Below, piece after piece: positions 8,687-44,794 of a DNA stretch of 64,000 bases. Location of the stretch: the sequence record NZ_CP123987.1; one strand, 5' to 3'. The stretch's first letter is position 1. Each line of letters starts with the position of its first letter. The translations under genes and the position numbers were made by a program. Source of the DNA: a plasmid. The notes under the pieces are model-generated. The model did no database searches. It was not told the DNA's origin and saw only the letters and a program-made list of their open reading frames with translations.

Positions 8687-9010
8687 TCAAAAATGAATTG
8701 TGAGGTAATAGATTATGAAAAAACTTTATTCTGCTCTTATGACTGCATTTAACGAAGATGGTTCTGTTAACTTAGACGGTGTTCGTGAAATGGTTCGTTA
8801 CAATATTGATGTAAATCATATCGATGGACTTTATGTAGGTGGTAGTACTGGTGAAACTTTCATGCTTAGTACAGAAGAAAAAAAGAGTATCTTCAAGGTT
8901 GCTTATGAAGAAGCTGCTGGCAAAACACATCTTATTGTAAACACACTATAGTGTGACATTACAGATAAAAAGGCCCTCAAAATCACATTTTCCTAGTGAT
9001 TTTGAGGGCC

Positions 9011-10537
9011 TTACTTTGTACAAATTTCTTTAACTTTAGAATTCCATGGCAAATAAGCTCCAACCTTGACATTTTCTCGTTTTTCTAATAGTGAGAAAAT
9101 GTAGTTGAAATACTTGAATATATCTAAGCCATTCAACTTGGCTGTTTGAACTAAACTATAAAATATTGCACTAGCTTTGGCACCATCAACGCTTCTCGCA
9201 AACAATGAGTTCTTACGAACTAAGGTAGATAGCCTAATCACTTGTTCTATCGGATTGTTTGATAGAGGGAGTTCGCCAATTTTATATATATTTTCTAATC
9301 TAGGCTGAAATTTTTTGGCATATTCAACAGCTTTCTTTAATTTACTGCTAGGATTAGGGATAGTATCCAGAAAATCGTAGAATTCATCAACATATTTTTT
9401 CAAATGAAGCTTCCGCTTCAGTACTTTTTCTTCTGCATTTTGATACTCAAGCTTCTTTTCTTCTTTAAAAATACGATTTAATAATTCTACCGCTCTTACT
9501 GCATATGATCCTCTTCCTTGTTTTAAAGATTTGACTATTTCCACAAAATGTCTGCGTATATGCACCAAACAGCTACCATATGTAATTTGTGGATACATTT
9601 CACTGCTATAGGCATTATAACCATCACACATAATTGCTCCAGTGTAAGCTCCAACCAGATTAGAAATATTTTCTTGCTTTCGGCTACTAGAGTAATTAAA
9701 CACCACTATTTGATGATTTGAAAATTCTTCTGTCGTTCTCATTACCCAAAAATACGATTTACTTCGATTCTTTTCTTCCAACACCTGAAAAGGAGTTTCG
9801 TCCATATGAATAACCGGATTTTTCAATAAAATCTTAGTAAGTTCATCGTGAACCGTTTCTAACTGTTCACTCAATTTAATGATGGCACGTGCCATATGCT
9901 TTGTATCTATTGGTAAGCCAATATGTTTAAAATATATTGCTTGTCTATTCAATGGTACAGCCATTAAATATTTAGAAGTAACTACTTGAGCCAATACACT
10001 ACTGGAAAAATAACTATGTGGAAAAATAGGACTAGTAGGTACTTTACCGGCAACTATTTTATCGCCACCTTTTGGGTGGCAATTTTCACATTTATAGGTT
10101 TGCTGATAATGATTACGACAAAAAAGCTCAGGTTGTTTCAAGCCTACCTCTCGATAAACACATTTTTTGCCAATTAGAGTGAGTTTTTCATGACAATCAG
10201 CACAATTTTTTTGTTCAAGATCATGAACGACATCTACTTGTACTAAAGTATCAAGAAACTCAGCTCGTTGACCACGTGGTTTAACTTTTCGGTGGCAAAC
10301 TACTCTAAGCTCTACTTCAACTTCTTCATTTTCTTTAGATGAAATATCAGAATCTATATCTAATTCTTCTAATTCAGCCTCTGAAAAAAATGAAAGTTGA
10401 TTTTTATCTAATTTTTCCGTTTTTTTTCCAAAAATACGGGCATTGAGAAGCTTAATAGTTTCAGACAATTCTTCAATCTTTTTATGAAGTTGTTGATTTT
10501 CCTTTTCAAGCTCCTCTATTCTTTTGTCTTTATCCAT
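9011..10537 (-). CDS. tnpC: IS66 family transposase TnpC
   Basis: 508 aa with a leucine-zipper N-terminus, a Cys-rich Zn-finger region and a DDE domain. Confidence 0.85.
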   Translation of the reverse strand: MDKDKRIEELEKENQQLHKKIEELSETIKLLNARIFGKKTEKLDKNQLSFFSEAELEELDIDSDISSKENEEVEVELRVVCHRKVKPRGQRAEFLDTLVQVDVVHDLEQKNCADCHEKLTLIGKKCVYREVGLKQPELFCRNHYQQTYKCENCHPKGGDKIVAGKVPTSPIFPHSYFSSSVLAQVVTSKYLMAVPLNRQAIYFKHIGLPIDTKHMARAIIKLSEQLETVHDELTKILLKNPVIHMDETPFQVLEEKNRSKSYFWVMRTTEEFSNHQIVVFNYSSSRKQENISNLVGAYTGAIMCDGYNAYSSEMYPQITYGSCLVHIRRHFVEIVKSLKQGRGSYAVRAVELLNRIFKEEKKLEYQNAEEKVLKRKLHLKKYVDEFYDFLDTIPNPSSKLKKAVEYAKKFQPRLENIYKIGELPLSNNPIEQVIRLSTLVRKNSLFARSVDGAKASAIFYSLVQTAKLNGLDIFKYFNYIFSLLEKRENVKVGAYLPWNSKVKEICTK

Positions 10538-10611
10538 AGTTCGCCACCTCCTCTTTTAAGATTATGCTTAAAAGCATACCAGTAGGCAGCGTTTTTAGTA
10601 AAGAAAAATTT

Positions 10612-10968
10612 TTAATAAAATGCACCTTTTGGTGCTAAATGTACTTTGGGTTGTGGTAAAGGATTAAGTCCACTTAAAAGTAAGTCAATTTGTTGGTTAT
10701 CTAATTCTTTAACTTCTTCACTAGTTTTCGGCCAAGTTAAATTACCATTTTCGAAACGTTTATAGAGTAGTATAAAACCTTCACCATCCCAATAAAGAGC
10801 TTTAAATCTGTCGTTTCTTCGACCACAGAACAAGAAGATTGAATCATTATAAAGATTCATACCAAAATTATCGGCAATTAAAATTGCCAGTGTATCGATT
10901 CCTTTACGTAAATCAGTGTTGCCACAAACAATATATACATGTTTAGGAGAGTGATAATTAACTAACAT
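10612..10968 (-). CDS. tnpB: IS66 family accessory protein TnpB (Orf2)
   Basis: 118 aa, typical IS66 Orf2. Confidence 0.8.
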   Translation of the reverse strand: MLVNYHSPKHVYIVCGNTDLRKGIDTLAILIADNFGMNLYNDSIFLFCGRRNDRFKALYWDGEGFILLYKRFENGNLTWPKTSEEVKELDNQQIDLLLSGLNPLPQPKVHLAPKGAFY

Positions 10969-11146
10969 ATTTCTTTATCAACTCCCAGACGTCATTCATT
11001 ACTTCAGTATCAACTCCGTGACACAACAAAATTTTCACCTTATCAAATTTAATTTCAGCATCTAAATTCAATTTGGTTGTTTTAATTTTAGTTGCTGTTT
11101 TCCGTTTTTTAGTTGGTTTTACTTCAACAATTTCAGTTTCTTCCAT
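10958..11146 (-). CDS. IS66 family Orf1 (TnpA, small HTH protein)
   Basis: Probable start at MEETEIVEV with an AGGAGG RBS; the upstream part of the track ORF lies inside the terminal IR. Confidence 0.6.
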   Translation of the reverse strand: MEETEIVEVKPTKKRKTATKIKTTKLNLDAEIKFDKVKILLCHGVDTEVMNDVWELIKKYVS

Positions 11147-11904
11147 TGTATAAAAAATCCTCCTATACTTTTTATGATAATAGTATAGGGGGATTTCAAA
11201 TTTTTTCATATTCAGCTCATTATAAAGTACTTACATCTTATTGCTCAAGTAGGGTCTTTGAATTTAAATGAAGCAAAAGAATTAGCTAAATATGTGACTG
11301 ATTTAGGTTACCCTATGATTTCTGCTGTTACACCTTTCTATTATAATTTCTCATTTGAACAAATTAAGAATTATTATAATTCAATTCTTGAAGGTGTAGA
11401 TAATAAACTTATTATTTATTCTATTCCAGCTTTAACAGGTGTAGCATTATCTCTAGATCAATTTGCTGAATTGTTTGAAAATCCAAAAATTGTAGGTATT
11501 AAATATACTAATGCCGATTTCTATCTCCTAGAACGTGTTCGTAATCGTTTCCCAGATAAGTTAATTCTTTCAGGTTTTGACGAAATGCTATTACCTGCTC
11601 TTGCATTGGACGTTGATGGTGCAATTGGTTCAACATTTAACTTAAACGCTCCTCGTGTTAAAGAAGAAATTGCAGCTTTCGAGGCTGGAGATATAGAAAA
11701 AGCTCGTGAACTTCAAACATTAAGTAATGACTATATTACTGATCTTTTAAATAATGATTTATATCCAACTATTAAGTTAGTATTTGAAAAAATTGGTGTT
11801 CATGCTGGCTACTGCAAAGAACCTATGAGCAAGCCAACTCCTGAAATGGAAGCTGGAGCTCAAAAGATTTATGAAAAATATTTCAAAGAATAGTAGAAAT
11901 TGGG

Positions 11905-16326: not shown

Positions 16327-16453
16327 AAAAATTATCATATTCAGAGTAAAGTTAAATAATTTGATTACTTTTTTTCAATTTTCTACAATTATCTTATTAA
16401 CTACTCTAAGATTAGAAGGGAGAACGGCATTTTTTTTATTGCCTATTAATTCA

Positions 16454-18373
16454 TTGAAATATATTGTTACTGGAATTATTGCCAATGTTGATGCAGGAAA
16501 AACTACTCTTTCTGAAGCATTACTATATCAAACGGGAAATCTACTCAATTTAGGTCGCGTTGATAACGGCAATACTTTCTTAGATACTGACCAACTAGAA
16601 AAAAAGCGTGGTATTACTATTTTTTCACACCAAGCAAATTTAGAATATAATGATCTTTCACTGACAATTTTAGATACTCCAGGACACGTTGATTTTGTTA
16701 CTCAAACCGAACAAGTTTTAAGTGTTCTTGACTATGCTATATTAGTTATTTCTGCTACTGATGGAATTACTAGTCACACTAGATCTCTTTGGAATTTGCT
16801 AAATCATTACCATATTCCTGTATTTATTTTTGTTAATAAAATTGATATCAGCACTAATAAGGCCTCACAGATTTTATCTCAATTAAAAAGTGAATTAGAT
16901 GAATCAATTATTGATTTTTCTTCTGATAATATGATTGAAGATATTGCAACGTGCAATGAATCATTATTTGAAGAGTATTTGCAAATTAATACCATATCTG
17001 ATGAAAAAATTCTATCACTAATCTCTGATAGAGTTATTTTCCCATGCTATTTTGGCTCTGCTTTAAAGTTAGATGGTATTGATAAATTTTTACAAGGATT
17101 CAATCAATGGACAAAAAAGTTACACTATCCGAATAATTTCCAAGCCAAAGTATTTAAAATTTCTCACAACGATAAAGGTGAACGTCTAACCTGGCTTCGT
17201 ATTCTAGGCGGCTCTCTAAAAACTAGAGATGAATTATTACCTGAACAAAAAATTAGTCAAATTAGAGTATATAATGGTGAAAAGTTTTCAACTTACCCAA
17301 CTGTTACTGCTGGTCAAGTTTGTACAATTCCTGGGCTAGTAAATACCTATCCTGGTTTAAGCATTGGTAAAAAACAAGTAGATACAATTCCAATCGTTAC
17401 ACCTGTTTTAAGTTATGCTCTTGACCTCAATGGCAATGATATTCAAGCTTGTTTAAAAGCTCTTCATGAATTAGAAGATGAAGATCCTAAGTTACATGTT
17501 ACTTGGTCTGAACATCTCAAAGAAATTAGTGTACAAATTATGGGAGAAATTCAGTTAGAAATCCTAGAACAAATACTCCTTGATCGATATAATTTAAACG
17601 TCACTTTTACTAAAGGAAATATTTTATATAAAGAAACTATCACTAATTCTATTGAGGGAGTTGGTCACTTCGAACCACTTCGTCATTATTCAGAAGTACA
17701 TTTATTATTAGAACCTGGAGAAAGAGGCAGTGGTCTCCAGTTCGAAAATCAATGTAGTCTAGAAGTCTTAAATAAAAATTGGCAACATCAAATTATATAC
17801 AATCTCAAGTCTAAAGAGCATCTAGGTGTATTAACTGGTTCCCCTCTTACTGATGTAAAAATTACCCTTTTAGGCGGGAAAGCTAGCAATGTACATACAG
17901 TTGGTGGAGATTTTCGTCAAGCATGTAGTCGTGCAGTTCGACAAGGTTTAATGATGCTCAGAGAAAATAATAATTGCCAACTCTTAGAACCTTGGTATCG
18001 TTTCAGACTAAAAGTTGATCGTACTCAAATTGGTCGTGCAATCAATGATATTCAACGAATGCATGGTACCTTGGATGAACAACAAGTTGAGGGGATACTA
18101 ACTGGAATTGCTCCTGTTTCAGAAATGTACAATTATGCCACCAATGTACGCGCATATACTCATGGGAATGGCACACTAGAATTGGAAATTGCTGGTTATT
18201 ATCCTTGTCATAATTCGACAGATATAGTATCTCAACAAAATTATGATCCTGTATCAGATTTAGAAAATACTCCACAATCTGTTTTCTGTGCTCATGGAGC
18301 TGGATATACAGTTGACTGGAAAGATGTACCTACAACTATGCATTGCGAGTATTTTTGGAATGGGATGAATTAG
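16454..18373 (+). CDS. EF-G/TetM-like translational GTPase (ribosomal-protection-type protein)
   Basis: G1-G4 motifs (AHVDAGKTTL, DTPGH, NKID); the domain order parallels Tet(M)/Tet(O) and EF-G; start uncertain (TTG 16439 or 16454; the track ORF begins at 16361). Confidence 0.7.
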   Translation: MKYIVTGIIANVDAGKTTLSEALLYQTGNLLNLGRVDNGNTFLDTDQLEKKRGITIFSHQANLEYNDLSLTILDTPGHVDFVTQTEQVLSVLDYAILVISATDGITSHTRSLWNLLNHYHIPVFIFVNKIDISTNKASQILSQLKSELDESIIDFSSDNMIEDIATCNESLFEEYLQINTISDEKILSLISDRVIFPCYFGSALKLDGIDKFLQGFNQWTKKLHYPNNFQAKVFKISHNDKGERLTWLRILGGSLKTRDELLPEQKISQIRVYNGEKFSTYPTVTAGQVCTIPGLVNTYPGLSIGKKQVDTIPIVTPVLSYALDLNGNDIQACLKALHELEDEDPKLHVTWSEHLKEISVQIMGEIQLEILEQILLDRYNLNVTFTKGNILYKETITNSIEGVGHFEPLRHYSEVHLLLEPGERGSGLQFENQCSLEVLNKNWQHQIIYNLKSKEHLGVLTGSPLTDVKITLLGGKASNVHTVGGDFRQACSRAVRQGLMMLRENNNCQLLEPWYRFRLKVDRTQIGRAINDIQRMHGTLDEQQVEGILTGIAPVSEMYNYATNVRAYTHGNGTLELEIAGYYPCHNSTDIVSQQNYDPVSDLENTPQSVFCAHGAGYTVDWKDVPTTMHCEYFWNGMN

Positions 18374-22714: not shown

Positions 22715-23612
22715 GTGGATCAGATCAGGGTGGACCAACAAAACTTGCCCAAAAAGGAACGATATGGGATTGGTGAGCTTCTAAAAACGATTGACTTGAA
22801 GCGACCAACCTATTACGATGAACGCAAACGTATCATCAATAAAAATGATAAGTATGCTGATGTTAAGGTGGTAATCAAGGAAATAGCGGAAAAAGGTAAA
22901 TGGAGAGGTTCTTACACATACGGCTATCGCCGTATAATGCCACTTCTTGAAAAAGCTGGATATCACATGGCTGAAGCCACTTTACGTCGCCTAATGAACG
23001 AATTAGGTGTACAACCAGCTATGTATAATCGTCGTAAAAATAATCACTATTCTTCTTATAAAGGTACAGTTGGTAAGGTAGCTGATAACTTGTTAAACCA
23101 AACATTTGATGCTACATCTCCTTTTACCGTTCTTCATACGGATGTTTCACAGGTACGTCTAGGTGATTCGACCTGGGCTTACATGTCAGTCATTTTAGAT
23201 CAAGCTACCAAGGAAGTTTTAGCCGCTTCTGTTAGCCAAAGCCCAAATAAATTGTTGATTATGGATACATTAAACCAGCTTGAGGATAACCTCCCTAATA
23301 ACTTTAGTCCAATTATCCATTCTGACCAAGGATGGCACTACCAATTAGAATATTACCGTGAAAAGATTGATTCGTTAAGTTTAATTCAAAGTATGTCCCG
23401 CAAGGGAAACTGCCTAGATAATGCCCCCAATGGAAAGCTTTTTCTATCTTTTTAAAGTTGAATCACAGCCTGAAATAAAGAAATGTAAGAGTATTTCTCA
23501 GTTCACACATTTCTTTAACAAGTATGTCAATTGGTACAATAATGACCGAATTTCCAATAAAACAAAAAACATGAGTCCGGTTGATTACCGAACCCATGTC
23601 TTAGCTGCTTAA
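22715..23612 (+). pseudogene. IS3 family transposase OrfB (DDE integrase) with a +1 indel in a C-run
   Basis: DDE domain HTDxG…D…NAP then a frame change at GCCCCCA (~23425): …GNCLDNAP|MESFF… continues in the 63-aa ORF 23421-23612. Confidence 0.7.
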
Positions 23613-24364
23613 AAATATTTTATTTTTGTCTAACTTTTTTGTTGCACTTCATCTAGATATGTAGCAGAATTTTTCTTTATATCATCATACATTTGCTTAT
23701 ACAATTGATATAAATCATCATTTTTACTTCCATAATCCCATATCAATTGCTCAAAGTTCTTTGACACTGCAGTTTCAGTTAAATTCATTGAACCTGTAAA
23801 ACATTGATAAGTATTTTGTTCTTTATTTTCCATCAAGTAAACTTTAGAATGGATCAACTTATCTTTAGTAAATCGCAATCTTAAAGAGCCATCTAATATT
23901 CTTTTGGCAAATTCACTTTCCAAATTATTTTCAACATAATTTACCCACGAAACACGCTTATCCATCAATTCCTGCATTCTTTATCCAATAGAATTATTAC
24001 CATTATCTGATAGGCCTAGAATTAACTCTATATCTTGATAAAATGGTAACAACTTTTCTTCAATAAATTTTATAGATGAAACAAAACTTACTCCATAAAA
24101 ACAATCATTCTCTTCTTTCCTACTTAATTCCCAGAAATTTCCATCTGAATATAATTTATTTTTTTCTCTATCTAGGATTTGCAATGTCATTCTGCTCACA
24201 CCCTTTCTTTTCTTATTTAATCGTTTGTTTATACACTAGACTCTTAACATAGCTTTCTTTGTCATTATAAACTTTTTTGTTTACTTTTTCATATTTAACT
24301 TCTTGTTATAATATAGATAGTTAAATATTAATTTTGGTTCGTTATTTAAAAGGGGGGAAGTTAC

Positions 24365-24532
24365 ATGACATATTTTTGGATTAGAACAATTGCTGGTATC
24401 CTAGTAGTAGCTACCATTTCTACATCATACTATTTAAAAACCGGACACGCCTGGATTTTTATTGTTGTGGTAATATCTGCCCTAATAGAAATTCCTTTAT
24501 CTTACTATCAGGAAAAGAAGAAAAATAAATAG
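24365..24532 (+). CDS. small membrane protein (56 aa)
   Basis: AGGGGGGAAG RBS, two predicted TM helices. Confidence 0.35.
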   Translation: MTYFWIRTIAGILVVATISTSYYLKTGHAWIFIVVVISALIEIPLSYYQEKKKNK

Positions 24533-24564
24533 CCCAAAAGTTCAATAAACTTTCAGGCTATTTA

Positions 24565-25062
24565 TTAAAAATTCCATTCCCAAAAAGCATTGCCATTCGC
24601 TACAATAAACATCTCTAACCATTTTAGAAAAGTACATTTAAAACACTTATCCATTTCCATACCTGGATAAGTTAAATAATCCTTTTTTTGCTTATAATTT
24701 CTGATATTGATACACATTTCACCATAATCACGGAAAAGTAGTATAGGAATTAAGTCTTTATCTATTGATTCTTGATATCTTTGTAAAATTTCCTGTCCAG
24801 AATAAATTTTACAAACAGGTCCACCTAATTCCATACCTTTGAATTCATCTTCGAATAAATTCAATCCATTAGTATACCTTAGTAGTTCAATTACTTCATC
24901 AGGTAAATTAAGTTCAATAAGTTTATTTGCTACATCATTAGGAATTTTATCAAAAAAAGTTATTCTAAAATTAAATACTCCACCAAAATCAGTGACAGGA
25001 TATTTCTTATTTCCATTATCTGATATTTCTTTCAACATCGAAATAATACTTTCAGCTGTCAT
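24565..25062 (-). CDS. SMI1/KNR4 (SUKH-1) family protein, putative polymorphic-toxin immunity protein
   Basis: 165 aa with typical SMI1/KNR4 family features; no cognate toxin gene adjacent. Confidence 0.6.
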   Translation of the reverse strand: MTAESIISMLKEISDNGNKKYPVTDFGGVFNFRITFFDKIPNDVANKLIELNLPDEVIELLRYTNGLNLFEDEFKGMELGGPVCKIYSGQEILQRYQESIDKDLIPILLFRDYGEMCINIRNYKQKKDYLTYPGMEMDKCFKCTFLKWLEMFIVANGNAFWEWNF

Positions 25063-25186
25063 ATTATCCCCTCTCTAATTTAAATAAACATATCTCTTCC
25101 TATTATATATAATAAATTTCAGAGTGTAAGGTTAGTCTATAAAAATAAATTTTTAATTCATAAACATTATAGATATACATAATGTA

Positions 25187-25233
25187 AAAAACACATAACA
25201 TTACCACAATGTATAATGTTATGTGTTTTTGAT
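25187..25233. repeat. 17-bp perfect inverted repeat in the plasmid-origin region
   Basis: AAAAACACATAACATTA…TAATGTTATGTGTTTTT. Confidence 0.7.
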
Positions 25234-25735
25234 ACTATTTTTACACTTCGAACATTATATTGTGCTCGAGGTGTAAAAATAGTCTTTTTTATACAGACTA
25301 TTTTTACACTCCGAATAGATTCTGTCCCTTTTCCCTGTATTTCCTTACATTCCAACTTCTTTTTTTAGCTCTATTTAGACTATTCTTACACTTCGAAGTG
25401 GTCAATATGACCATTTCGGAGTGGAAAAATATCTTATTCCCCTTTTTCTTTTATTTTAAAAGACTATTCTTACACTTCGAACATTATATTGTTGCAAAAA
25501 AGGCCTTAAATTGCGCGTGTAAGCCTTGACATATCAAGATTCTTCAATTTTAATAAAATTATCAATTATATACTAAAGTGTTCTTTTCTCACTGTTATTA
25601 GATTTCTTGTGATTCGCATAATTACAAGCTTTATCTATGTAAAAAGTGCATAAGACCGGGATTGGTTTATGTCGAGGTGTAAAAATAGTCTGTAATGTAT
25701 ATCTATTTTTTCGCTGTGTAAGAATGGTCTATAAA
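25230..25735. repeat. iteron array of a theta-type plasmid origin (~22-bp repeats in direct and inverted orientation)
   Basis: GACTATT(T/C)TTACACT(T/C)CGAA occurs at ~25236, 25297, 25386 and 25458. Inverted copies (TCGAGGTGTAAAAATAGTC) lie at ~25266, 25415, 25672 and 25704. The array is directly upstream of a Rep_3 gene. Confidence 0.75.
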
Positions 25736-25851
25736 TTCATTCAATTATATTGTAATTATTAATTCTATATGATTATAATAAACATAATGATAATTTATAG
25801 ATGTTTCTATGATAATTCTTAGTTACATCTTGTGTATTGTGAGGTGTTTGT

Positions 25852-26616
25852 ATGTCTAAAGAACCTGTTGTCCAACAGGAAATTGTAACAGCCTTCCCTA
25901 ATACCAAGGAAGTTCGTTACGATAATGAATTAAACCGTATTCCTATTGGGTTTATGAATGAAAGTGAACAGAATATTTTCTTCGCTATCCTAAGTCAGGT
26001 TAAAGAAACTAGTGAAAGAAAGACCAAATTATCTTTTACTCAAATTCGTGAATTAGCAAGTTTTCAGAAGACTTCAAACAAAGAGTTAATCAAGTCTCTT
26101 GATAATATGACAACAAAACTAGCCTCTTTAAATGTTCGAATCCATAACCAACAACAAATTATTAAGTTTACCCTATTCCCAACTTTTCAAATAGATGGGG
26201 ATCAGCAAACTCTAACTGTTGCTGTTAACGAAGATTTTCGCTATATCGTTAATGATTTAGCCAAAGGATTCGTAACTAACTTTGACATTGAAGAATTTAC
26301 TTCTATCAAATCTAAATATGCGAAAACAGCTTTTCGTTTAGCTAGAGAACACGAAAATGAAGTCTTTGATGTTGTATTAAAGGATTTTAAAGAACTTTTC
26401 TCTATTCCTAAATCTTATCGACCAACGGATATCAATAGATTAATTTTAACAAAAGTTAGTAAAATCCTACAGGAGTATTTTACTGTTTTTGAAATTACAC
26501 CTGTACAAGATGAAAAAGGTAAAGCTCATCGAATTATAGCTTACCGTTTTAATATTGGAAAACGTATTTTAAGAAATCTTGACGAACCACGTCAAATTTC
26601 ATTATTGGATGACTAA
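25852..26616 (+). CDS. rep: Rep_3-family plasmid replication initiator
   Basis: 254 aa; N-terminal NELNRIPIGFMNESEQNIFFAILSQV matches Rep_3 (pfam01051-type) initiators; an iteron array lies upstream. Confidence 0.8.
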   Translation: MSKEPVVQQEIVTAFPNTKEVRYDNELNRIPIGFMNESEQNIFFAILSQVKETSERKTKLSFTQIRELASFQKTSNKELIKSLDNMTTKLASLNVRIHNQQQIIKFTLFPTFQIDGDQQTLTVAVNEDFRYIVNDLAKGFVTNFDIEEFTSIKSKYAKTAFRLAREHENEVFDVVLKDFKELFSIPKSYRPTDINRLILTKVSKILQEYFTVFEITPVQDEKGKAHRIIAYRFNIGKRILRNLDEPRQISLLDD

Positions 26617-26900
26617 ATAAAAAAGCCCCTACCGACCAAAGTAAGGAGCTTAGAAACTGTATGTGACCAGCATACAGTAAAATCTCAGTCAAGTACCACC
26701 AAGACTAAGAACAAATAATTAATATCAAACTTACGATAGCTCTTTATAAAAGTTAATTAAGCACCACCAAAATTAACTTGAGTTTTTTGCACTCATTTTT
26801 CGCTATCTATGTTTCTAATTATAGCATTATTATGTCTTTTTTTCATCATTTTTAGTCTTGTGTGTACTTCAAATATTTTTTATGGAAGGAAGTTTACACA

Positions 26901-27893
26901 ATGAAAAGTCTTACATCTCGTGCATTTTTACCAATAAACACTGATTTATTCAACAATCCTAAGTATCAAGAATTAAGTTGCGATGCTATGGTTTTATATT
27001 CACTATATTCTCAAAGAAAAGAAGTATCTGCTTTTCATTCTCAAACCGGTAATGACACTTTTACAGATTCAGAAGGTATTTTTATCTATTTTTCTAATGA
27101 CGAAGCTTCAAAAATCCTTCGTATGTCTGTAAGAAAAATCTCTACTTTACGCTCTCAACTTATTGACTGTGGCCTAATAAGTGTTGTTCGTCATGGTCTT
27201 AAGAATTTTAAGATCTATGTAAATACACCAGAAACAACTCCGGCTGAAACAGATCTTGTTTTGCCTTGGGCCAATTTTGACTTTGAAAAGCCTATTAAAT
27301 CCGTTCCTGCAAATTCTGCTAGTACGAAGTCGCAAAAATTGCCTATAAATCAATCTAACAATAATCAAACCAAATTATTATTATCAAAAGAATCAAATGA
27401 ATCAGTACCACAAAATCAGAGTAATACTCCGGTTACACCTAAAAAATCCGAAAAAGATGGTTTAAATGATCTATCTTTAGATTCAATTATTACAAGACTT
27501 AAAGATACATTTAGTCTTCCTGTAGTTTCTAGATTGAAAGTATTAGCAAACAATTCATATACAAAATTAAAATGGTTTAGTGACACTATTTTTAAAGCTA
27601 AAAGTCAAGTAACTAAAAAATTATTATCTAATGCTAAATGGCTATATAATCCTGCTAGTCAAGAAGCAACTCATTTTGAATCCAACGAGTTGTTAAAACG
27701 AGGATTGGAATCTGCTTTACTTCAGATTGCTGAAATAGTCTATAAGGGTAAAGAAAAAGTACAAAATGAAGCCAAGTTTATTTATGTTTACTTACGTAAT
27801 TTTATGGCAAATGCAGTAAAACAATATTTGATAGACAATTATGAATTAACTGAGGATGATGAAATAGATTTGAATTTATTATTAAGATTCTAA
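26901..27893 (+). CDS. RepA_N-family (Firmicutes plasmid) replication protein
   Basis: N-terminal …NPKYQELSCDAMVLYSLYSQR…IFIYFSNDEASKILRMSVRKISTLRSQLIDCGLISV… matches the RepA_N wHTH domain; ATG 26901 with a GGAAGGAAG RBS. Confidence 0.65.
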   Translation: MKSLTSRAFLPINTDLFNNPKYQELSCDAMVLYSLYSQRKEVSAFHSQTGNDTFTDSEGIFIYFSNDEASKILRMSVRKISTLRSQLIDCGLISVVRHGLKNFKIYVNTPETTPAETDLVLPWANFDFEKPIKSVPANSASTKSQKLPINQSNNNQTKLLLSKESNESVPQNQSNTPVTPKKSEKDGLNDLSLDSIITRLKDTFSLPVVSRLKVLANNSYTKLKWFSDTIFKAKSQVTKKLLSNAKWLYNPASQEATHFESNELLKRGLESALLQIAEIVYKGKEKVQNEAKFIYVYLRNFMANAVKQYLIDNYELTEDDEIDLNLLLRF

Positions 27894-27943
27894 AAAAAGA
27901 ACCTGTAATCATACAGATTCTTCTGGAAAACTTTTATATTAAA

Positions 27944-31296
<3,353 letters not shown>

Positions 31297-31321
31297 TATA
31301 AAATCCTCCATTTGAATTTAG

Positions 31322-31360
31322 TAAATGAAGGTTTAGCCAACTGAATGTAACTATCCAATA
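31322..31360 (-). promoter_or_regulatory. RAT (ribonucleic antiterminator) element in the bglP leader
   Basis: Minus-strand GGATAGTTACATTCAGTTGGCTAAACCTTCA resembles the RAT consensus GGATTGTTACTG…GCAGGCAAAACC. Confidence 0.5.
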
Positions 31361-31368
31361 ATGATTTA

Positions 31369-32217
31369 CTAATCTGTATTTGTGTGTCTAATTAATTTTT
31401 CAATATGTATAGTTAGATAGATTAATTCATCACTTGCGAGTTCACAATGATATTCGTTTTGTATAAATTCCAGCACCTTTTTAGCAGCCTGGTAGGCCTC
31501 AGGATATTGAAGACTAATCATATCAAGCATAGAAGAATCATTTTTCTCTACAGATATTTGTTTAGAAAAAATTCTTTGTGCTAAATAACGTAAGTGAGTT
31601 ATAAAGCGATAATAATAAGCTGAGTGCTCATTAATTTCTTGATGACAAGCATATTTTAGAATTTGAATTACTTTTTGGATAAACTGTGTCAATCCATCTA
31701 AATCGTCAATAGTCTGATTCATTTGTGCTTCTACAATATGCATTGTAATAAAACCTGCCTCATCTTCAGGTAGTTTAATTCCAAATTGTTGATTAATAAT
31801 ATCTAGTGCTTCTTTACCGACTTTGAATTCTTCAGGATAGAATCTTTTAATTTTCCAAAGTAAATTATTTTTTAATTCAATACCAGAATTATATCGTTCT
31901 AATGCACTATGGATATGGTCACTAAGAGCAATAACTTTTGAGTCACTAACTTTGGTATTAAAAATATCTTCGGCATAATTTAAAATCTGGGTGGCAACCC
32001 TAATATCTTCTAAAGAAATATTGGATAATAATTGAGAGACTGAAGATTCTTCATTATCTGATGAACTAAGAGAAAAACGTTTTTCAATTAAATTTTCATC
32101 GATATTATTTCCAGGTCGTTGTTTGAAACCTAATCCTCTACCCATCAAAATAATTTCTTGATTATTTTGATCGAGAGTAATGACAATATTATTATTAATA
32201 ACTTTAAAAATTTTCAT
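31369..32217 (-). CDS. licT: BglG/LicT-family transcriptional antiterminator
   Basis: CAT RNA-binding N-terminus (MKIFKVINNNIV) plus two PRD domains. Confidence 0.85.
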   Translation of the reverse strand: MKIFKVINNNIVITLDQNNQEIILMGRGLGFKQRPGNNIDENLIEKRFSLSSSDNEESSVSQLLSNISLEDIRVATQILNYAEDIFNTKVSDSKVIALSDHIHSALERYNSGIELKNNLLWKIKRFYPEEFKVGKEALDIINQQFGIKLPEDEAGFITMHIVEAQMNQTIDDLDGLTQFIQKVIQILKYACHQEINEHSAYYYRFITHLRYLAQRIFSKQISVEKNDSSMLDMISLQYPEAYQAAKKVLEFIQNEYHCELASDELIYLTIHIEKLIRHTNTD

Positions 32218-32239
32218 GGTATCCTCCTTTCTGAATAGT

Positions 32240-32300
32240 AATAAAAAAACCAATATACATCTTTGTAGAGACTACAACAAAAAAGATGTATATTGGTTTA
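32240..32300 (-). terminator. RAT-overlapping terminator upstream of licT (autoregulatory attenuator)
   Basis: Minus strand: RAT-like GGATAGTTATTGCGCTTGGGTAAGCTAAACC overlaps the hairpin AAACCAATATACATCTTT…AAAGATGTATATTGGTTT, which is followed by a T-run. Confidence 0.45.
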
Positions 32301-32389
32301 GCTTACCCAAGCGCAATAACTATCCAAACTTATACAAGAAGAATATAACACAAGGTAACAAAATTAGCAACCGTTTTCTTTTGTAACAT

Positions 32390-32490
32390 ATAACATTTAT
32401 TAAATACATTATATATAATATAAATATATAAATCATTAATATAATTAATTAACATTATATTAATATATAATGTATTAATATAATGTTATA
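32390..32490. repeat. AT-rich palindromic repeat cluster (ACATTATA/TATAATGT family) upstream of parA
   Basis: TAACATTATATTAATATATAATGTATTAATATAATGTTA; related copies at 33800-33900, 34420-34480 and 37140-37270. Confidence 0.6.
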
Positions 32491-32609
32491 ATTAAACAAA
32501 AAGAATTAACACATTGTGGGAGATTGTGGTAAACTAATTAAAGATACAAGGCTACAAAGATAAAAAGCTACAAGTATAAATGTGTAAATGTAGAAAGGTA
32601 GGTTAAAAG

Positions 32610-33422
32610 ATGACTGCCACAGTATTATCATTTTTAAATTTTAAAGGTGGCGTTGGTAAAACTAGCGCTACTGCATTAGTAAGTTACAACTTAGCAAAAA
32701 TGGGTAAAAAGTGTCTAGTTATAGACTTTGACCCTCAGGCTAATATTACTGCCCTATTTTTAAAAACTAAGTATCAAAATAAAGATAAAGTTGCAACTAT
32801 TGAATCATCATTAATGACCGCTTTGAATAGAGAAGAAAGTTTAGATTCAATAACGATTGAAATTGAAGACAACTTATACCTTATTCCAAACGCTGTTGAC
32901 TTTAGTATGTATAGTCGTTTTTTGGAAAGAAACTTTATGGATGAAAAAGAACGTATTGGTTTCTTCAAAAAGAAAGTTGATTCATTACGTGATAAATACG
33001 ACTTTATCTTCATAGATGTTCCACCAACAATTTCATTACCAAACGATACAGCTTTCTATGCATGTGATCAAATTATTGTAGTTCTTCAAACTCAAGAACG
33101 TTCGTTGCAAGGCGCAGAAGTTTTGATTGAGTATTTACAAAATAGTATTGTTGATGCATATGATTCTAAAGTTGATATTTTAGGAATTTTGCCTTTCTTA
33201 TCAAAAAGAAGTGCTAGCGTAGATAAAGAAATTTTGGATGCTGCTTCAGAAGAATTTGGTGATGAAAATATCTTTAATGCAAAAATTATGCAAATGGAAC
33301 GTGTTAAGAGAATGGATATGACAGGAATTACCGATAATCCAAGTGATTCGTGGGATAAGAAAACACATGCAGCTTTCAAGGGAGTTGCTAATGAAATTTT
33401 AGAAAGGTTAGGTGAAGAATAA
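32610..33422 (+). CDS. parA: ParA/Soj-family partition ATPase
   Basis: KGGVGKT deviant Walker A, 270 aa. Confidence 0.85.
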   Translation: MTATVLSFLNFKGGVGKTSATALVSYNLAKMGKKCLVIDFDPQANITALFLKTKYQNKDKVATIESSLMTALNREESLDSITIEIEDNLYLIPNAVDFSMYSRFLERNFMDEKERIGFFKKKVDSLRDKYDFIFIDVPPTISLPNDTAFYACDQIIVVLQTQERSLQGAEVLIEYLQNSIVDAYDSKVDILGILPFLSKRSASVDKEILDAASEEFGDENIFNAKIMQMERVKRMDMTGITDNPSDSWDKKTHAAFKGVANEILERLGEE

Positions 33423-33757
33423 TGGCTGGTGGATTACTTAATCATTCTAAAAAAAGTGGACAAAATAAATTAGTTCATAGTGGACCAGTAAAAGTTGAAA
33501 ATCAGGTTGAACGTGGCGATGTAGTTACTGATGAAAATACAGTAACCTTTCCTGCTAATGTTCGTGTAGATAATCATATTAGAAATCAAATAACAGCTTT
33601 AAATAATATAGGGATTGGATCAACCCAAAAAGAAGTTGTAGGGAATCTGTTGAGTGAAAGAATTGAAAAGTTAAGCGATAGTGACAGGCAAAGATTTAAT
33701 CGCATCTTGAATATTTTGGAACAAAAAGATTATCTTACATCACTAAGTAAAAAGTAA
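33422..33757 (+). CDS. small ParB/ParG-like partition protein
   Basis: 111 aa, translationally coupled to parA (ATG overlaps the stop codon). Confidence 0.45.
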   Translation: MAGGLLNHSKKSGQNKLVHSGPVKVENQVERGDVVTDENTVTFPANVRVDNHIRNQITALNNIGIGSTQKEVVGNLLSERIEKLSDSDRQRFNRILNILEQKDYLTSLSKK

Positions 33758-33955
33758 TGGTGAAACAGAGGATAGTTTGATACTATCCTCTGTTTTTGTA
33801 GTGTTAAATGTAAATAGATTATATATAATGAATAATGTATTTATATAATGTTAATAGGATAATATTATGTAGACAACATTTATATAAAGTGTATAATAAA
33901 GAAAATTATTAATATGTGGCGTTAAAAGATAATCTTGAATGGAGGGAAAGTAACG

Positions 33956-34420
33956 ATGAAAAATGTATGGCTGATATTAAAGTTAATAAGGTATTTGCTA
34001 GTGGGTATAATTTGTCTAACTCTAATATTTATTTATAAAGAGGATATTACTTTTCACCCGACGAAGTATACATTTGAAATGCAACATATGTATTTTTTTA
34101 TTACCACAGCTATTCTCCCATTCTTTAGATTGAAACACCAAAGTTGGTTTATATCCGATGGTGAACCAGTAGTTTCTTATAAGCAGAAAGCGTTAGATTT
34201 ACATCATCAGGATCTTGCGCAAAATCATAAAGATAGAAAATGGACATCAAATGGAGTCTACACAAATCCATACGAATATACGAGTGTAGATACAATGTCG
34301 CATGATAATATGTCGGAATGGCTATATAGTGTAGCTAAAAGTGTGATTATGAGTATATTATTTATTTTTTTTGGACCAATTTTTATCGCAATAGGGATAT
34401 ATGTTAAATATAAAAGTTAA
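33956..34420 (+). CDS. hypothetical membrane protein
   Basis: Two TM regions; flanked by AT-rich palindromes. Confidence 0.4.
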   Translation: MKNVWLILKLIRYLLVGIICLTLIFIYKEDITFHPTKYTFEMQHMYFFITTAILPFFRLKHQSWFISDGEPVVSYKQKALDLHHQDLAQNHKDRKWTSNGVYTNPYEYTSVDTMSHDNMSEWLYSVAKSVIMSILFIFFGPIFIAIGIYVKYKS

Positions 34421-34424
34421 ATAC

Positions 34425-34470
34425 ATATGTTAAATGTTAATGTATAATGTTATAAACATTATACATTAAC
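34425..34470. repeat. perfect 16-bp-arm palindrome GTTAATGTATAATGTT-ATAA-ACATTATACATTAAC
   Basis: Visible in the sequence at 34430-34465. Confidence 0.7.
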
Positions 34471-34543
34471 ATTAACACAAAATAAGAGTTAGAAAAAAGG
34501 GCTAGGAAAATCTTTTTCCTAGCCCTTTTCTTATTATATATAT

Positions 34544-37078
34544 TTAATCAAGGATATTTGAAATAGCAGCATTTACATGATCTCTTTCACGTTCAATCAT
34601 AGCAACACGACTTTCGATAACTTTAGTATCCATGATAATTTCACGTGTTAAACCTGGAGTATTAAGTTTAGGTTCAAAGAACTTTTTGAATTCAACTAAT
34701 CGTGATTCGGTATGCAATGCACGTGCAGTAACTGTGATATAAGATGTAAATTCCATATCACCACCAACTGTATCTTCAAGCCATTGCCATTCGTTGCGAA
34801 TCCAATCCCAAGCTGCTTGTTCGCCTAGATTGTTTGAAAGAGTTCTGAAGTACCAAGTGCGCAAATCTTGAGGCTTGATGGTATCTGCATCTTCGAAATA
34901 AGATACAATTTGTTGAATTTGGTCAGCATTTTTTGTTGAAGTTAATGCGAACAAGATGTCTTGCTTATATGAACTATCACTAGTTTTACGATAATCTTCT
35001 AGTAAGGATTCAAATAATTGGGAAGAGTTATAATTTTTAACTTCATTTTGTAATACAAGAGCACGAATATCAGAAGACAAACTTAATAATTTATCTTGAT
35101 TTTGAGTAAAGATTTCATGTGCTTCAGATTCTGCAGAAGGATTTTCAGCATATAAAGCAGCGTTCAAAACAAGTGGACGAACTAGTTGATCGTCATTGCT
35201 ATCAGTATCCTTTGGTAACCAAGATAATCGTTGAACTTGGTCAGCACTTAAAGTATTAACAAATTTCTTTAAGTTTGTTTCATCAGTGGAATATGGAGTA
35301 ACAAAGAATTTCAAATTATTAACAATGCTATATAAAGTTTCATTAACAATAGCTGAATCACTATTTGAAAATTCTTTTAATAATGGAATAACCTTGGAAT
35401 AAGAAGTTAAACCACTATCAGCAAGGAGACGTAAATCTTGCAATAATTGTAATTTATCAATATGTGTTAGATTTTGCGAGTTAACTAAAATATCTTCTAA
35501 TAGTTCAGGAGAGTAATTAACTACAACATGAGAAGTATTTCCCACATTAAAGCGTAGAGGTTTGTCAGCTGCTTTTCTCAATTCTTGATAGTCACCTAAG
35601 TCTAATTCTTTCTGTGTAAGTAACTTAGGAGCTTGAGCAAAGTCTGCATGTAGAGGAACTTGCCATAAACGATCTACTTCTTTACCTTCACCAATGAAGA
35701 ATTGATTTTGTTCAACTACTAAATGACCATTTTTAACATTGACATTAAGGACTGGATAACCAGGTTGTTCTAGCCATGAGTTCATAATAGAGCCAATATC
35801 AAGATTTGAAGCTTCACCAAGTGCTTTCCATAAGTCAGAACCAACTGCATTATTGTATTTATGTGACTTAAAGTAAGCTTTTAGTCCAGAACGTAAAGCT
35901 TCATCGCCAATTAAAGCACGAACCATTACTAATAAACGAGAACCTTTTGCATAAACAATAGCTGGATCAAATAGAGAATCGATTTCAGCAGGATCCTTAA
36001 CTTCAACGTGAACGGATTGAACGCCATCAGTTGCATCGCGTTGTAGAGCTTGAGGTGCTTCAGATGTTTGGAATAATTCCCAGATATTCCAGTCAGGTTG
36101 TAGTGCATCGATAGCAACATATTCCATCATATTGGCGAAACTTTCATTTAACCATAGATCGTCCCACCATTTCATAGTTACTAAATCACCGAACCATTGA
36201 TGAGCAAGTTCATGAGCAATAACAGTTGCAACAATACGCTTTGTATCTAAAGATGTGTTATCAGGATTTAATAATAGATAAGCTTCACGATAAGTTACCA
36301 AGCCCCAATTTTCCATGGCTCCGGCTGAAAAGTCAGGTAAGGCTAGTTGCCAGGAGTGAGGGAGTGGATATGGAGTTTGATAATAATCTTCGTAAAATTC
36401 AATTGAACGTTTAGCAATATCTAAAGCAAAATCTAGTTCTTTTTTGGCATGAGTTTTAGTTGAAAATACACCGATTTTAACACCAGATTTAGTTTCAGTA
36501 AGTTTGCTTTGTAGTTCACCAAAGGCAAAGGCTACAAGGTAAGTTGACATTCTCACAGTAGTGTCAAAGTAATGAACACCATTTTCTGTCTTAACTTCTG
36601 GCATGTTGCTAAGGACAGTTTCACCTTCATGCTCGTCAAACTTTATAGCAAGATCGAAAGTAGCTTTAGCAACTGGTTCGTCAATAGAAGGAAATGCTTG
36701 ACGCGCAAATGTAGTTTCAAATTGCGTACCGATAAGTTGTTTTTTTACACCATCAACTTCATAGTAAGAAGGATAGATCCCCATCATAGAATCAGTAAGC
36801 TTAGCGGAATATGATACTTCTAAATTAAGATCTCCAGTATTAGGAACATTAAAAGAGACAGTTTCAGAATTATCATCGAATTTAAAATCGGTAGAATTAC
36901 CATTAACCTTTACTTCAAGAATGTTAAGAAATTTTTGATGTAAAGCAATTTCTTTTTGAGAAGCATTCCCAGAAATTTTTGTAACTCCAGTGAATGTTTT
37001 CTTTTCACGATTAATATCTAAATAAATTTGATAATGTTTTGGTTGGAATAAATCATATAAATGTGATACTTGTCCCAT
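34544..37078 (-). CDS. pepN: aminopeptidase N (M1 family)
   Basis: GAMENWG and HELAHQWFGDLVT…E zinc-binding motifs; 844 aa; GAAAGGTGG RBS before the ATG at 37078. Confidence 0.9.
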   Translation of the reverse strand: MGQVSHLYDLFQPKHYQIYLDINREKKTFTGVTKISGNASQKEIALHQKFLNILEVKVNGNSTDFKFDDNSETVSFNVPNTGDLNLEVSYSAKLTDSMMGIYPSYYEVDGVKKQLIGTQFETTFARQAFPSIDEPVAKATFDLAIKFDEHEGETVLSNMPEVKTENGVHYFDTTVRMSTYLVAFAFGELQSKLTETKSGVKIGVFSTKTHAKKELDFALDIAKRSIEFYEDYYQTPYPLPHSWQLALPDFSAGAMENWGLVTYREAYLLLNPDNTSLDTKRIVATVIAHELAHQWFGDLVTMKWWDDLWLNESFANMMEYVAIDALQPDWNIWELFQTSEAPQALQRDATDGVQSVHVEVKDPAEIDSLFDPAIVYAKGSRLLVMVRALIGDEALRSGLKAYFKSHKYNNAVGSDLWKALGEASNLDIGSIMNSWLEQPGYPVLNVNVKNGHLVVEQNQFFIGEGKEVDRLWQVPLHADFAQAPKLLTQKELDLGDYQELRKAADKPLRFNVGNTSHVVVNYSPELLEDILVNSQNLTHIDKLQLLQDLRLLADSGLTSYSKVIPLLKEFSNSDSAIVNETLYSIVNNLKFFVTPYSTDETNLKKFVNTLSADQVQRLSWLPKDTDSNDDQLVRPLVLNAALYAENPSAESEAHEIFTQNQDKLLSLSSDIRALVLQNEVKNYNSSQLFESLLEDYRKTSDSSYKQDILFALTSTKNADQIQQIVSYFEDADTIKPQDLRTWYFRTLSNNLGEQAAWDWIRNEWQWLEDTVGGDMEFTSYITVTARALHTESRLVEFKKFFEPKLNTPGLTREIIMDTKVIESRVAMIERERDHVNAAISNILD

Positions 37079-41794: not shown

Positions 41795-42551
41795 GCATTC
41801 ACAATAAAAATTGTGGGTGCTTTTTTTATACATGAATTTAGGAGGTATGGATTATGTTTGAGCTTATATATTGGTGTAGAATTAATAACAACCAAGGAGA
41901 ATTCATTACTGAAATAGTTGAGATTGACAGAATTGCATTACATAAATTTTGGCATTAATAAATTTCTAAAATTTACCAATGAATCCGGTCAAGTAAATAT
42001 AATACCTATTGACAATATTAATCGGTTGAAAGAATTGAATTAGTATTTTGCCTTTTTCCTGCTTGCAGGCGTTAAAAACTGAGTACTCTCTCAAGGCTTT
42101 AACTGCGAGAAAAAGGAGTTTTGTGATGGATAACGAAAATCAAGAAGTAGAAAACTAAGACAATACCGGTAAAGCTGCTAAAACAGTCGAAAAACTTCAA
42201 AAACGTTTAGGAAAATTAACTGGTGATAAGCACGACTTGGAAGAAGAATTAGTCAATGCTAAGTTGAGCTTGAAGCATATAAATTAGGTAAAAAGATAGT
42301 TAAAAAGTTATCTGAAGAAGAATAAGGTTAAAAAAGAGAAAAGATGTTAAAGATAAGGTTTACACAATGATACAAGAGCGTGACATTGAATTTTATGTTG
42401 ACCGTCGAGATGCTGGTGAAACTAATCAAGAATTATATAATTTATTCCTACGAATGTTTGAGAGTAAGTACTTTATAATGAGCTGAATATGAAAAAATTT
42501 GAAATCCCCCTATACTATTATCATAAAAAGTATAGGAGGATTTTTTATACA

Positions 42552-42740
42552 ATGGAAGAAACTGAAATTGTTGAAGTAAAACCAACTAAAAAACGGAAAA
42601 CAGCAACTAAAATTAAAACAACCAAATTGAATTTAGATGCTGAAATTAAATTTGATAAGGTGAAAATTTTGTTGTGTCACGGAGTTGATACTGAAGTAAT
42701 GAATGACGTCTGGGAGTTGATAAAGAAATATGTTAGTTAA
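42552..42740 (+). CDS. IS66 family Orf1
   Basis: Same protein as 10958-11146. Confidence 0.6.
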   Translation: MEETEIVEVKPTKKRKTATKIKTTKLNLDAEIKFDKVKILLCHGVDTEVMNDVWELIKKYVS

Positions 42741-43086
42741 TTATCACTCTCCTAAACATGTATATATTGTTTGTGGCAACACTGATTTACGTAAAGGAAT
42801 CGATACACTGGCAATTTTAATTGCCGATAATTTTGGTATGAATCTTTATAATGATTCAATCTTCTTGTTCTGTGGTCGAAGAAACGACAGATTTAAAGCT
42901 CTTTATTGGGATGGTGAAGGTTTTATACTACTCTATAAACGTTTCGAAAATGGTAATTTAACTTGGCCGAAAACTAGTGAAGAAGTTAAAGAATTAGATA
43001 ACCAACAAATTGACTTACTTTTAAGTGGACTTAATCCTTTACCACAACCCAAAGTACATTTAGCACCAAAAGGTGCATTTTATTAA
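42730..43086 (+). CDS. tnpB: IS66 family TnpB
   Basis: Identical to the copy-1 protein. Confidence 0.8.
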   Translation: MLVNYHSPKHVYIVCGNTDLRKGIDTLAILIADNFGMNLYNDSIFLFCGRRNDRFKALYWDGEGFILLYKRFENGNLTWPKTSEEVKELDNQQIDLLLSGLNPLPQPKVHLAPKGAFY

Positions 43087-43160
43087 AAATTTTTCTTTAC
43101 TAAAAACGCTGCCTACTGGTATGCTTTTAAGCATAATCTTAAAAGAGGAGGTGGCGAACT

Positions 43161-44687: not shown

Positions 44688-44794
44688 GGCCCTCAAAATC
44701 ACTAGGAAAATGTGATTTTGAGGGCCTTTTTATCTGTAATGTCACACTATAGTGTGTTTACGTTTGAGATATGCGATTCTCAAACTTTTTTTGT

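Follow-up and report, generated by a model that had tools for sequence, protein, structure and literature searches.

The repA-type megaplasmids of Ligilactobacillus salivarius have a pMP118-like replication region of 6.4 kb that is highly similar among strains (PMC4165912), and repA, repE and parA are their marker genes (PMC5610712). For most strains, the megaplasmid has been reported at near one copy per chromosome (PMC5643018). Here we analyzed a stretch of 64,000 nucleotides from the plasmid record NZ_CP123987.1, hereafter called the window. It contains a 2.8-kb replicon (25060-27900) in which dispersed 21-bp repeats, the iterons, precede a Rep_3-family initiator gene, repE, and a RepA_N-family initiator gene, repA. 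Our analyses indicated that the window probably holds the region for replication and maintenance of a megaplasmid that is autonomous, circular and low in copy number and belongs to the L. salivarius repA type and the pMP118 family. This region combines two modules that share one orientation.

The replicon matched 31 PLSDB records at 95.5-100% identity, all of them L. salivarius plasmids of 138-530 kb, and both flanks (window 1-25000 and 39001-64000) matched L. salivarius plasmids at 93-100%. The closest plasmid records are deposited as circular. In the closest of all, NZ_CP090412.1, a circular plasmid of 140.8 kb, the replicon differed by one indel only, with 100% identity otherwise, the parA and DUF5388 proteins carried the identical annotation, and ndk, rpsN, HU, tet and sugar-utilization genes stood beside the replicon as in the window. 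Membership in the repA type has been defined by repE, repA and parA at ≥93% identity on a single contig (PMC5610712). All three marker genes were found on the window, with Rep_3 99-100% and RepA 93-100% identical to the 31 plasmids.

Numbering of pMP118 from strain UCC118 starts at the first base of its Rep_3 gene, with repA at 1051, parA at 5306 and the DUF5388 gene at 6118. The order iterons, repE, repA, beta-glucoside (bgl) operon, parA and DUF5388 gene is common to the window and to pMP118 and other repA-type megaplasmids (pMP1046A, pHN3 etc.). Origin DNA was 92% identical to pMP118 with gaps counted, and RepA 94.5%. The window differs in that it is without one 29-bp iteron unit that the pMP118-family relatives carry, and in that its bgl operon is intact, whereas that of pMP118 has decayed to a phosphotransferase system (PTS) IIA piece and a CAT RNA-binding piece. 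As a member of the described pMP118 family that is essentially identical to a RefSeq plasmid, the region is thus already known. The iteron map, the one-iteron deletion and a candidate antisense RNA may not have been described before. Literature combining salivarius, megaplasmid and iterons contained no description of these iterons; this literature did not include the 2006-2008 pMP118 papers (Claesson 2006, Li 2007, Fang 2008), which may partly note these points. The origin and the first initiator gene are composed as follows.

25060..25230, no strand: AT-rich stretch, 18-20% GC in a 60-bp profile, left of the iteron cluster, holding R1 and the 17-bp inverted repeat; candidate unwinding region
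25118..25138, minus strand: iteron R1, diverged (AGACTAACCTTACACTCTGAA on this strand), with 3 mismatches to the core
25187-25203 / 25214-25230, no strand: perfect 17-bp inverted repeat AAAAACACATAACATTA / TAATGTTATGTGTTTTT with a 10-nt spacer, from direct reading
25232..25252, plus strand: iteron F1, from repeat scan and core scan
25265..25285, minus strand: iteron R2, which pairs in inverted orientation with F1 (8 nt apart) and F2 (9 nt apart), from both scans
25295..25315, plus strand: iteron F2, from both scans
25377..25397, plus strand: iteron F3, exact consensus, from both scans
25415..25435, minus strand: degenerate iteron-like copy R3 (AAGATATTTTTCCACTCCGAA on this strand), from inverted-repeat comparison
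25461..25481, plus strand: iteron F4, exact consensus; relatives have an extra 29-bp unit directly before it
25671..25691, minus strand: iteron R4, promoter-proximal, from both scans
25710..25730, minus strand: iteron R5, ending 19 bp before the -35 hexamer of repE; candidate autoregulatory site
25750..25779, plus strand: candidate repE promoter TTGTAA-N18-TATAAT within a stretch of 13-15% GC (25720-25810); same hexamers in L. hayakitensis
25852..26616, plus strand: repE, Rep_3-family initiator of 254 aa with WH1 and WH2 domains (Pfam)

Iteron origins of Rep_3 plasmids typically have 3-7 head-to-tail units of 22 bp, and many of them, not all, contain a DnaA box. In the window, the 21-bp repeat AGACTATTYTTACACTYCGAA occurred in eight strong copies, four on each strand, plus one degenerate copy (25118-25730), and its consensus within 25100-25850 reads AGACTATT(C/T)TTACAC(T)(T)CGAA. 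When the whole window was scanned for AGACTATTYTTACACTTCGAA with up to 3 mismatches, 7 matches were found, all in 25232-25730, against an expectation of 0.01 and with 0 of 100 shuffles reaching 7. The 15-bp core AGACTATTTTTACAC, again with up to 3 mismatches, had 8 matches in the origin, starting at 25232, 25295, 25377 and 25461 on the plus strand and at 25124, 25271, 25677 and 25716 on the minus strand. This count agrees exactly with the four direct and four inverted iterons given in an initial annotation made from the sequence alone, which had also reported the 17-bp perfect inverted repeat that we located here. The annotation had further described the iterons as an array upstream of a Rep_3 gene. 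The repeats are real and do stand beside a true Rep_3 gene; their layout, in contrast, is dispersed. Forward iterons follow each other at 63, 82 and 84 bp from start to start, half of the copies are inverted, and a regular head-to-tail period of ~22 bp is missing. Tandem Repeats Finder detected no array in 25100-25850, from which it follows that the iterons do not form a tandem array. F1, R2 and F2 lie close together and alternate in orientation (25232-25315), F3 is paired with the degenerate R3, and both L. hayakitensis and a Logan contig keep the R4/R5 pair at its 39-bp spacing. The 17-bp inverted repeat showed single-sided changes in some strains (variants at 25188 and 25203) and was not recognized by eye in the L. 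hayakitensis origin.

Compared with known iteron-type Rep_3 theta replicons (pSK639 and the pCI305/pWV02 type of Firmicutes; F RepE, R6K pi and pPS10 RepA of Proteobacteria), the locus shares the WH1-WH2 initiator, the ~21-bp repeats upstream of the rep gene with copies beside the rep promoter, and the AT-rich flanks. It differs by sites spread through 600 bp of both strands, with intervals of 24-256 bp, by the lack of a DnaA box in the L. salivarius origin, by a best protein identity of 31-40% outside the clade, and by its host, a megaplasmid of 140-360 kb instead of a small plasmid. Stretches of 13-20% GC were found at 25060-25230, 25540-25599 and 25720-25810, on a plasmid with only ~30% GC overall. 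Gene orientation switches divergently at 25.06-25.85 kb, and the GC skew turns from negative to positive across 20-33 kb with a cumulative minimum at ~31-33 kb, which fits an origin nearby without fixing its position.

Three further candidates from the origin were rejected. Two short open reading frames (ORFs; 25260-25529 on the plus and 25167-25355 on the minus strand) were taken as spurious; they are unannotated in relatives and overlap the repeats. A second iteron cluster elsewhere, suggested by hits in "2 places" in DNA searches, the closest plasmid included, is most simply explained by inverted iterons that match the same region on the other strand. The abundant 520-nt long non-coding RNA of pMP118 does not account for the repeat region, as it is placed at LSL_1885, between a PTS gene and a helix-turn-helix regulator.

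The assignment of RepE to the Rep_3 family was borne out by Pfam, with 81 bits for Rep3_N (cut-off 22.4) and 29.8 bits for Rep3_C (cut-off 21.1), and comparison with plasmid Rep_3 proteins, as had been proposed, gave the 99-100% identity to the 31 L. salivarius plasmids stated above. A PDB search with the Rep_3 sequence only found nothing. A predicted RepE model of moderate confidence (mean predicted local distance difference test score 67.6) had its best solved matches in R6K pi on iteron DNA, F RepE, RctB and pPS10 RepA (first matches 2nra, with an E-value of 3e-8, 2z9o and 1rep), with TM-scores of only ~0.4. Within the species, repE is under purifying selection, with 99-100% amino acid identity and a ratio of nonsynonymous to synonymous rates (dN/dS) of 0-0.06. 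Among seven L. salivarius relatives, dS was ~0.25 in repA and ~0.05 in the adjacent repE, i.e. four to five times higher in repA, and the 3' half of repA fell into two haplotype groups. This pattern suggests recombination or a nucleotide-level constraint in repE.

Outside the species cluster, a collection of 5.8 billion proteins contained only two close Rep_3 relatives, 79% and 40% identical. The latter lies beside phage tail genes without a RepA_N gene and was of no comparative help. The 79% relative is from L. hayakitensis, where the gene is again followed by a RepA_N gene (55% identical to RepA). Its upstream region of ~0.9 kb has ~14 copies of the iteron core on both strands and includes the promoter-proximal pair at 39-bp spacing as well as a 29-bp tandem pair; the surrounding origin sequence is little alike between the two species (judged by eye, unaligned). 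Just downstream of the tandem iteron pair, L. hayakitensis has a perfect DnaA box TTATCCACA (L006 2833-2841; DSM 18933 contig NZ_BAML01000048.1), which was not found at the equivalent place in L. salivarius. RepA_N relatives with 43-55% identity come from pMP1046B and two metagenomic lineages. They lie beside a divergent parA without a Rep_3 gene, and the iteron core was absent at 2-3 mismatches from the stretches compared around these RepA_N-only replicons. Since the core is kept upstream of the L. hayakitensis Rep_3 gene and missing from the RepA_N-only replicons, the repeats go with Rep_3 and not with RepA_N, as judged from sequence conservation.

In the window and in no other sequence compared, the 29-bp unit AGACTATTCTTACACTTCCAAAAATTTGT is missing after 25460. 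In relatives it forms a tandem pair with F4, their only one, and it was present in all 31 PLSDB relatives, in DSM 20555, in 11 metagenome contigs and in L. hayakitensis. The corresponding stretch spans 751 bp in the window and 771-782 bp in all 31 PLSDB plasmids. The 11 metagenome contigs all showed the tandem junction and none the deletion junction. As the tandem pair also exists in L. hayakitensis, loss of the unit is the derived state. The deletion is flanked by 19-bp direct repeats, and it could be either real, as a slippage event and copy-control variant, or an assembly collapse.

The second module consists of repA and a candidate countertranscript in the spacer that separates it from repE.

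26617..26846, minus strand: candidate countertranscript of ~195 nt with two GGUGGU-loop hairpins and a third hairpin, from sequence signals and folding
26846-26818, minus strand: extended -10 promoter of the candidate RNA, ATGAAA-N17-TGcTATAAT, from a promoter scan
26647-26626, minus strand: intrinsic terminator of the candidate RNA, its U-run ending at ~26617 at the repE stop codon, from a terminator scan
26901..27893, plus strand: repA, RepA_N-family initiator of 330 aa, marker gene of 'repA-type' megaplasmids (Pfam; annotation of relatives)

That a RepA_N-family gene follows the Rep_3 gene was correct in the initial annotation; its product scored 41.6 bits against RepA_N PF06970 (cut-off 30), and its N-terminal domain matched the solved pSK41/pTZ2162 RepA domains (4pta, 4pql, 4pt7, 5kbj; E-values 1e-4 to 4e-3). 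The C-terminal domain reached 19.9 bits for Bac_RepA_C, below the Pfam cut-off of 25. A start at GTG 26862 was discarded, the annotated start in relatives being ATG 26901. With a dN/dS of 0.08-0.25, repA evolves faster than repE and is also under purifying selection; its center is the most variable stretch among strains. Repeats found inside it were limited to short elements in two copies and a 9-bp tandem of 2.4 units (27383-27404). Because no plus-strand terminator follows repE, repA is probably transcribed together with repE. The annotation had treated the RepA_N gene as a passenger. However, it has a candidate control RNA of its own and its relatives form replicons without Rep_3, so that it is better regarded as a second replication module.

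The candidate RNA folded better than shuffled controls, with a z-score of -3.1, and a second folding test gave a z-score of -3.4. L. hayakitensis keeps the RNA promoter, one loop hairpin and the terminator, with compensatory changes, and several G-U pairs of the candidate RNA would be mismatches if read on the other strand. The segment of the repA leader just before the ribosome-binding site (RBS) is complementary to the RNA target, with -23.1 kcal/mol compared to -12.0 +/- 2.9 kcal/mol in shuffles; alternatively, the same segment can fold locally over the Shine-Dalgarno sequence. Rfam searches, at gathering scores over the whole window and with E-values up to 1 over 23000-35000, assigned no family to the origin or the repE-repA spacer; elsewhere, they gave only hairpin matches at chance level and a group II intron. 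The same architecture was seen in RepA_N-only replicons from two further lineages, where the loops of the two hairpins are identical to each other but have another sequence, and a U-run comes next. In pMP1046B (180-420) and in the stretch L029 (4700-4967), the two hairpins lie antisense to the repA leader, with identical loops UUCGCCAAAAC and a U7 after the second. An extended -10 promoter antisense to the repA leader was scanned and found in L029 only. Two further kinds of repeat were noted in pMP1046B: TGTACA repeats that cluster near parA, and three ~35-bp direct repeats immediately before repA.

RNAI of pSK41 acts at ~100 nt before the start site, and the RBS is hidden as a result. According to a 2017 review, comparable antisense control did not seem to occur in RepA_N plasmids of genera other than staphylococci (PMC5703833). 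The window shares with pSK41/pSK1-type replicons the RepA_N N-terminal domain and, as a candidate only, the two-stem-loop counter-transcribed RNA directed against a leader ~90-100 nt upstream of the start codon, together with the RBS-hiding hairpin (PMC5703833). In contrast to that type, the candidate RNA is ~195 nt long instead of ~83 nt, without similarity in sequence or in Rfam, no Rep boxes were recognized inside repA, the C-terminal domain match stays below the Pfam cut-off, and repA lies behind a Rep_3 gene, probably in one operon. Two initiator types occur in 11% of S. aureus theta plasmids (PMC5703833), which like the window combine two unrelated theta initiators on one plasmid. The pair described here is, however, adjacent, co-oriented and conserved across the whole species and its sister species with both genes under purifying selection, unlike a sporadic co-integrate in which one of the copies is often inactive.

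In our reading, the Rep_3/iteron module is likely to be an active origin. RepE monomers would bind the nine 21-bp sites, which extend over ~600 bp in both orientations, and bound RepE might distort the DNA and open the adjacent AT-rich stretch. Host helicase and primase could then start theta replication at the opened stretch. By occupying the two promoter-proximal sites (25671-25730), RepE may limit its own transcription, and pairing of iterons between plasmid copies could hold the copy number near one per chromosome. Expression of repA is probably limited by the ~195-nt candidate countertranscript, which would pair with the intercistronic leader and favor the hairpin that hides the repA RBS. 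ParA and the DUF5388 protein, encoded 5 kb away, would partition the plasmid copies. We may speculate further, and here with some doubt, that the adjacent modules are one conserved two-initiator operon and not a casual co-integrate, with RepA_N throttled by a pSK41-like countertranscript whose architecture recurs in RepA_N-only Ligilactobacillus replicons, and that the iteron loss is a natural copy-control variant.

Several observations weigh against this reading. No experimental demonstration that either module alone drives replication was found in the literature, which did not include the original pMP118 papers. The iterons do not form the regular tandem array of 22-bp units that Rep_3 plasmids typically have, and no DnaA box TTATCCACA was detected in 25000-27900 at ≤1 mismatch. 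The cumulative minimum of the GC skew falls away from the iterons and does not allow a distinction between the two modules. Covariation for the candidate RNA comes from two clades only, and a repeat search revealed no clear Rep boxes inside repA. Finally, the RepA_N relatives at 43-55% identity that stand beside parA manage without Rep_3 and without iteron cores.

As these relatives form Rep_3-free replicons, RepA_N could itself be the main initiator, real and sufficient, with its origin inside or just upstream of repA as in pSK41-type plasmids. Rep_3 and its iterons would then be auxiliary or co-integrated, i.e. a second conditional origin, a determinant of copy number or incompatibility, or a co-integrated replicon kept for other reasons. 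In agreement with this, repA has its own candidate antisense control, and the plasmid type is named after repA in the literature (PMC4165912, PMC5610712). Nevertheless, we consider a sufficient RepA_N unlikely. Rep_3 is the more constrained protein, with a dN/dS of at most 0.06 and 79% cross-species identity compared to 55% for RepA, the iteron core and its layout are conserved across species, and both genes are kept in the same order in every relative examined. In addition, no repeated Rep boxes were found in repA, and its center is the most variable stretch.

It is far less probable that the repeats are operator sites of another DNA-binding protein, or leftover repeated sequence, with no role in replication initiation. 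Such a role-free origin of the repeats would be in line with their dispersed, bidirectional layout and irregular spacing, which do not resemble a textbook iteron array, and RepE binding is so far our inference. Yet the repeats were found only upstream of the Rep_3 genes of this clade, where they are retained between species with diverging spacers. None occurred in the RepA_N-only replicons examined, and the promoter-proximal pair is fixed in position relative to repE. The initial annotation suggested that the replicon is an integrated plasmid remnant in a chromosome, and IS elements and usually chromosomal genes (ndk, rpsN, HU, sugar operons) do surround it. This suggestion can practically be dismissed, because the only matches of the replicon and of its two flanks are L. 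salivarius plasmids, including all 31 PLSDB matches to the origin, and on complete circular plasmids of 138-360 kb this replicon has these genes at its sides, with ndk, rpsN and HU on that of 140.8 kb. Both initiator genes, which are under purifying selection, and the partition genes are also intact, and comparison of the window did not reveal the signature of a remnant, i.e. chromosomal DNA on both sides and decayed replication or partition genes. The alternative offered in the same annotation, a megaplasmid with core-like genes, is the right one and fits the described repA-type megaplasmids (PMC4165912, PMC5610712).

Downstream of the replicon as a two-module composite, cargo and partition genes follow.

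27944..32253, minus strand: beta-glucoside operon with GH1 6-phospho-beta-glucosidase, PTS IIABC and LicT, between repA and parA
32399..32573, no strand: AT-rich tandem repeats upstream of parA, from a tandem-repeat search; candidate centromere or parA operator
32610-33422, plus strand: parA, ParA ATPase (AAA_31, E-value 1e-37; Pfam)
33422-33757, plus strand: gene of a small DUF5388 protein (E-value 2e-28; Pfam)

The beta-glucoside operon is cargo and not replication machinery. The parA gene and the small DUF5388 gene correspond to the parA plus small parB module that had been noted 5 kb further on. Just upstream of licT lies a long, near-perfect AT-rich hairpin (32245-32301), for which Rfam gave chance-level matches to miRNA models only; it may be a bidirectional terminator.

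Two inverted copies of an insertion sequence (IS), 2.3 kb each and 99.96% identical (8937-11238 and 42461-44761), bracket the replication and partition region at a distance of ~31 kb. Their ORFs encode 118 aa and 508 aa and are IS66-type according to the annotation of relatives. Recombination between the two copies could invert the replication/partition segment. The left copy seems to explain the ~9% of window 1-25000 that NZ_CP090412.1 does not cover, as judged from a 2.3-kb shift in gene offsets. A group II intron at 59870-61691 was recognized by Rfam matches to D1-D4 and domain V-VI above gathering scores; these flank a 465-aa ORF (60210-61607) that presumably is the intron-encoded protein. 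Directly left of the origin, the minus-strand gene at 24565-25062 (165 aa) showed weak SUKH/SMI1-KNR4 (immunity-protein-like) matches below the Pfam cut-offs, and a fragment of a PLD-like nuclease is found at 23630-23977. A tetracycline-resistance gene of the ribosomal-protection TetM/W/O/S type lies at 16361-18373, 7 kb from the origin and beside an rpsN paralogue.

The correct label for this DNA is hence megaplasmid. The ndk, rpsN and HU genes, the sugar operons and the tetracycline-resistance gene are plasmid-borne, and the repeats mark the origin. A resistance gene on a megaplasmid bears on the safety assessment of probiotic strains. The fine map of the origin, with its dispersed iterons, the promoter-proximal pair and the candidate antisense RNA, could help in the engineering of the probiotic species L. 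salivarius and could guide the construction of a minimal megaplasmid-derived vector or the curing of the megaplasmid. If true, the antisense RNA would extend antisense copy control of RepA_N replicons beyond the staphylococci.

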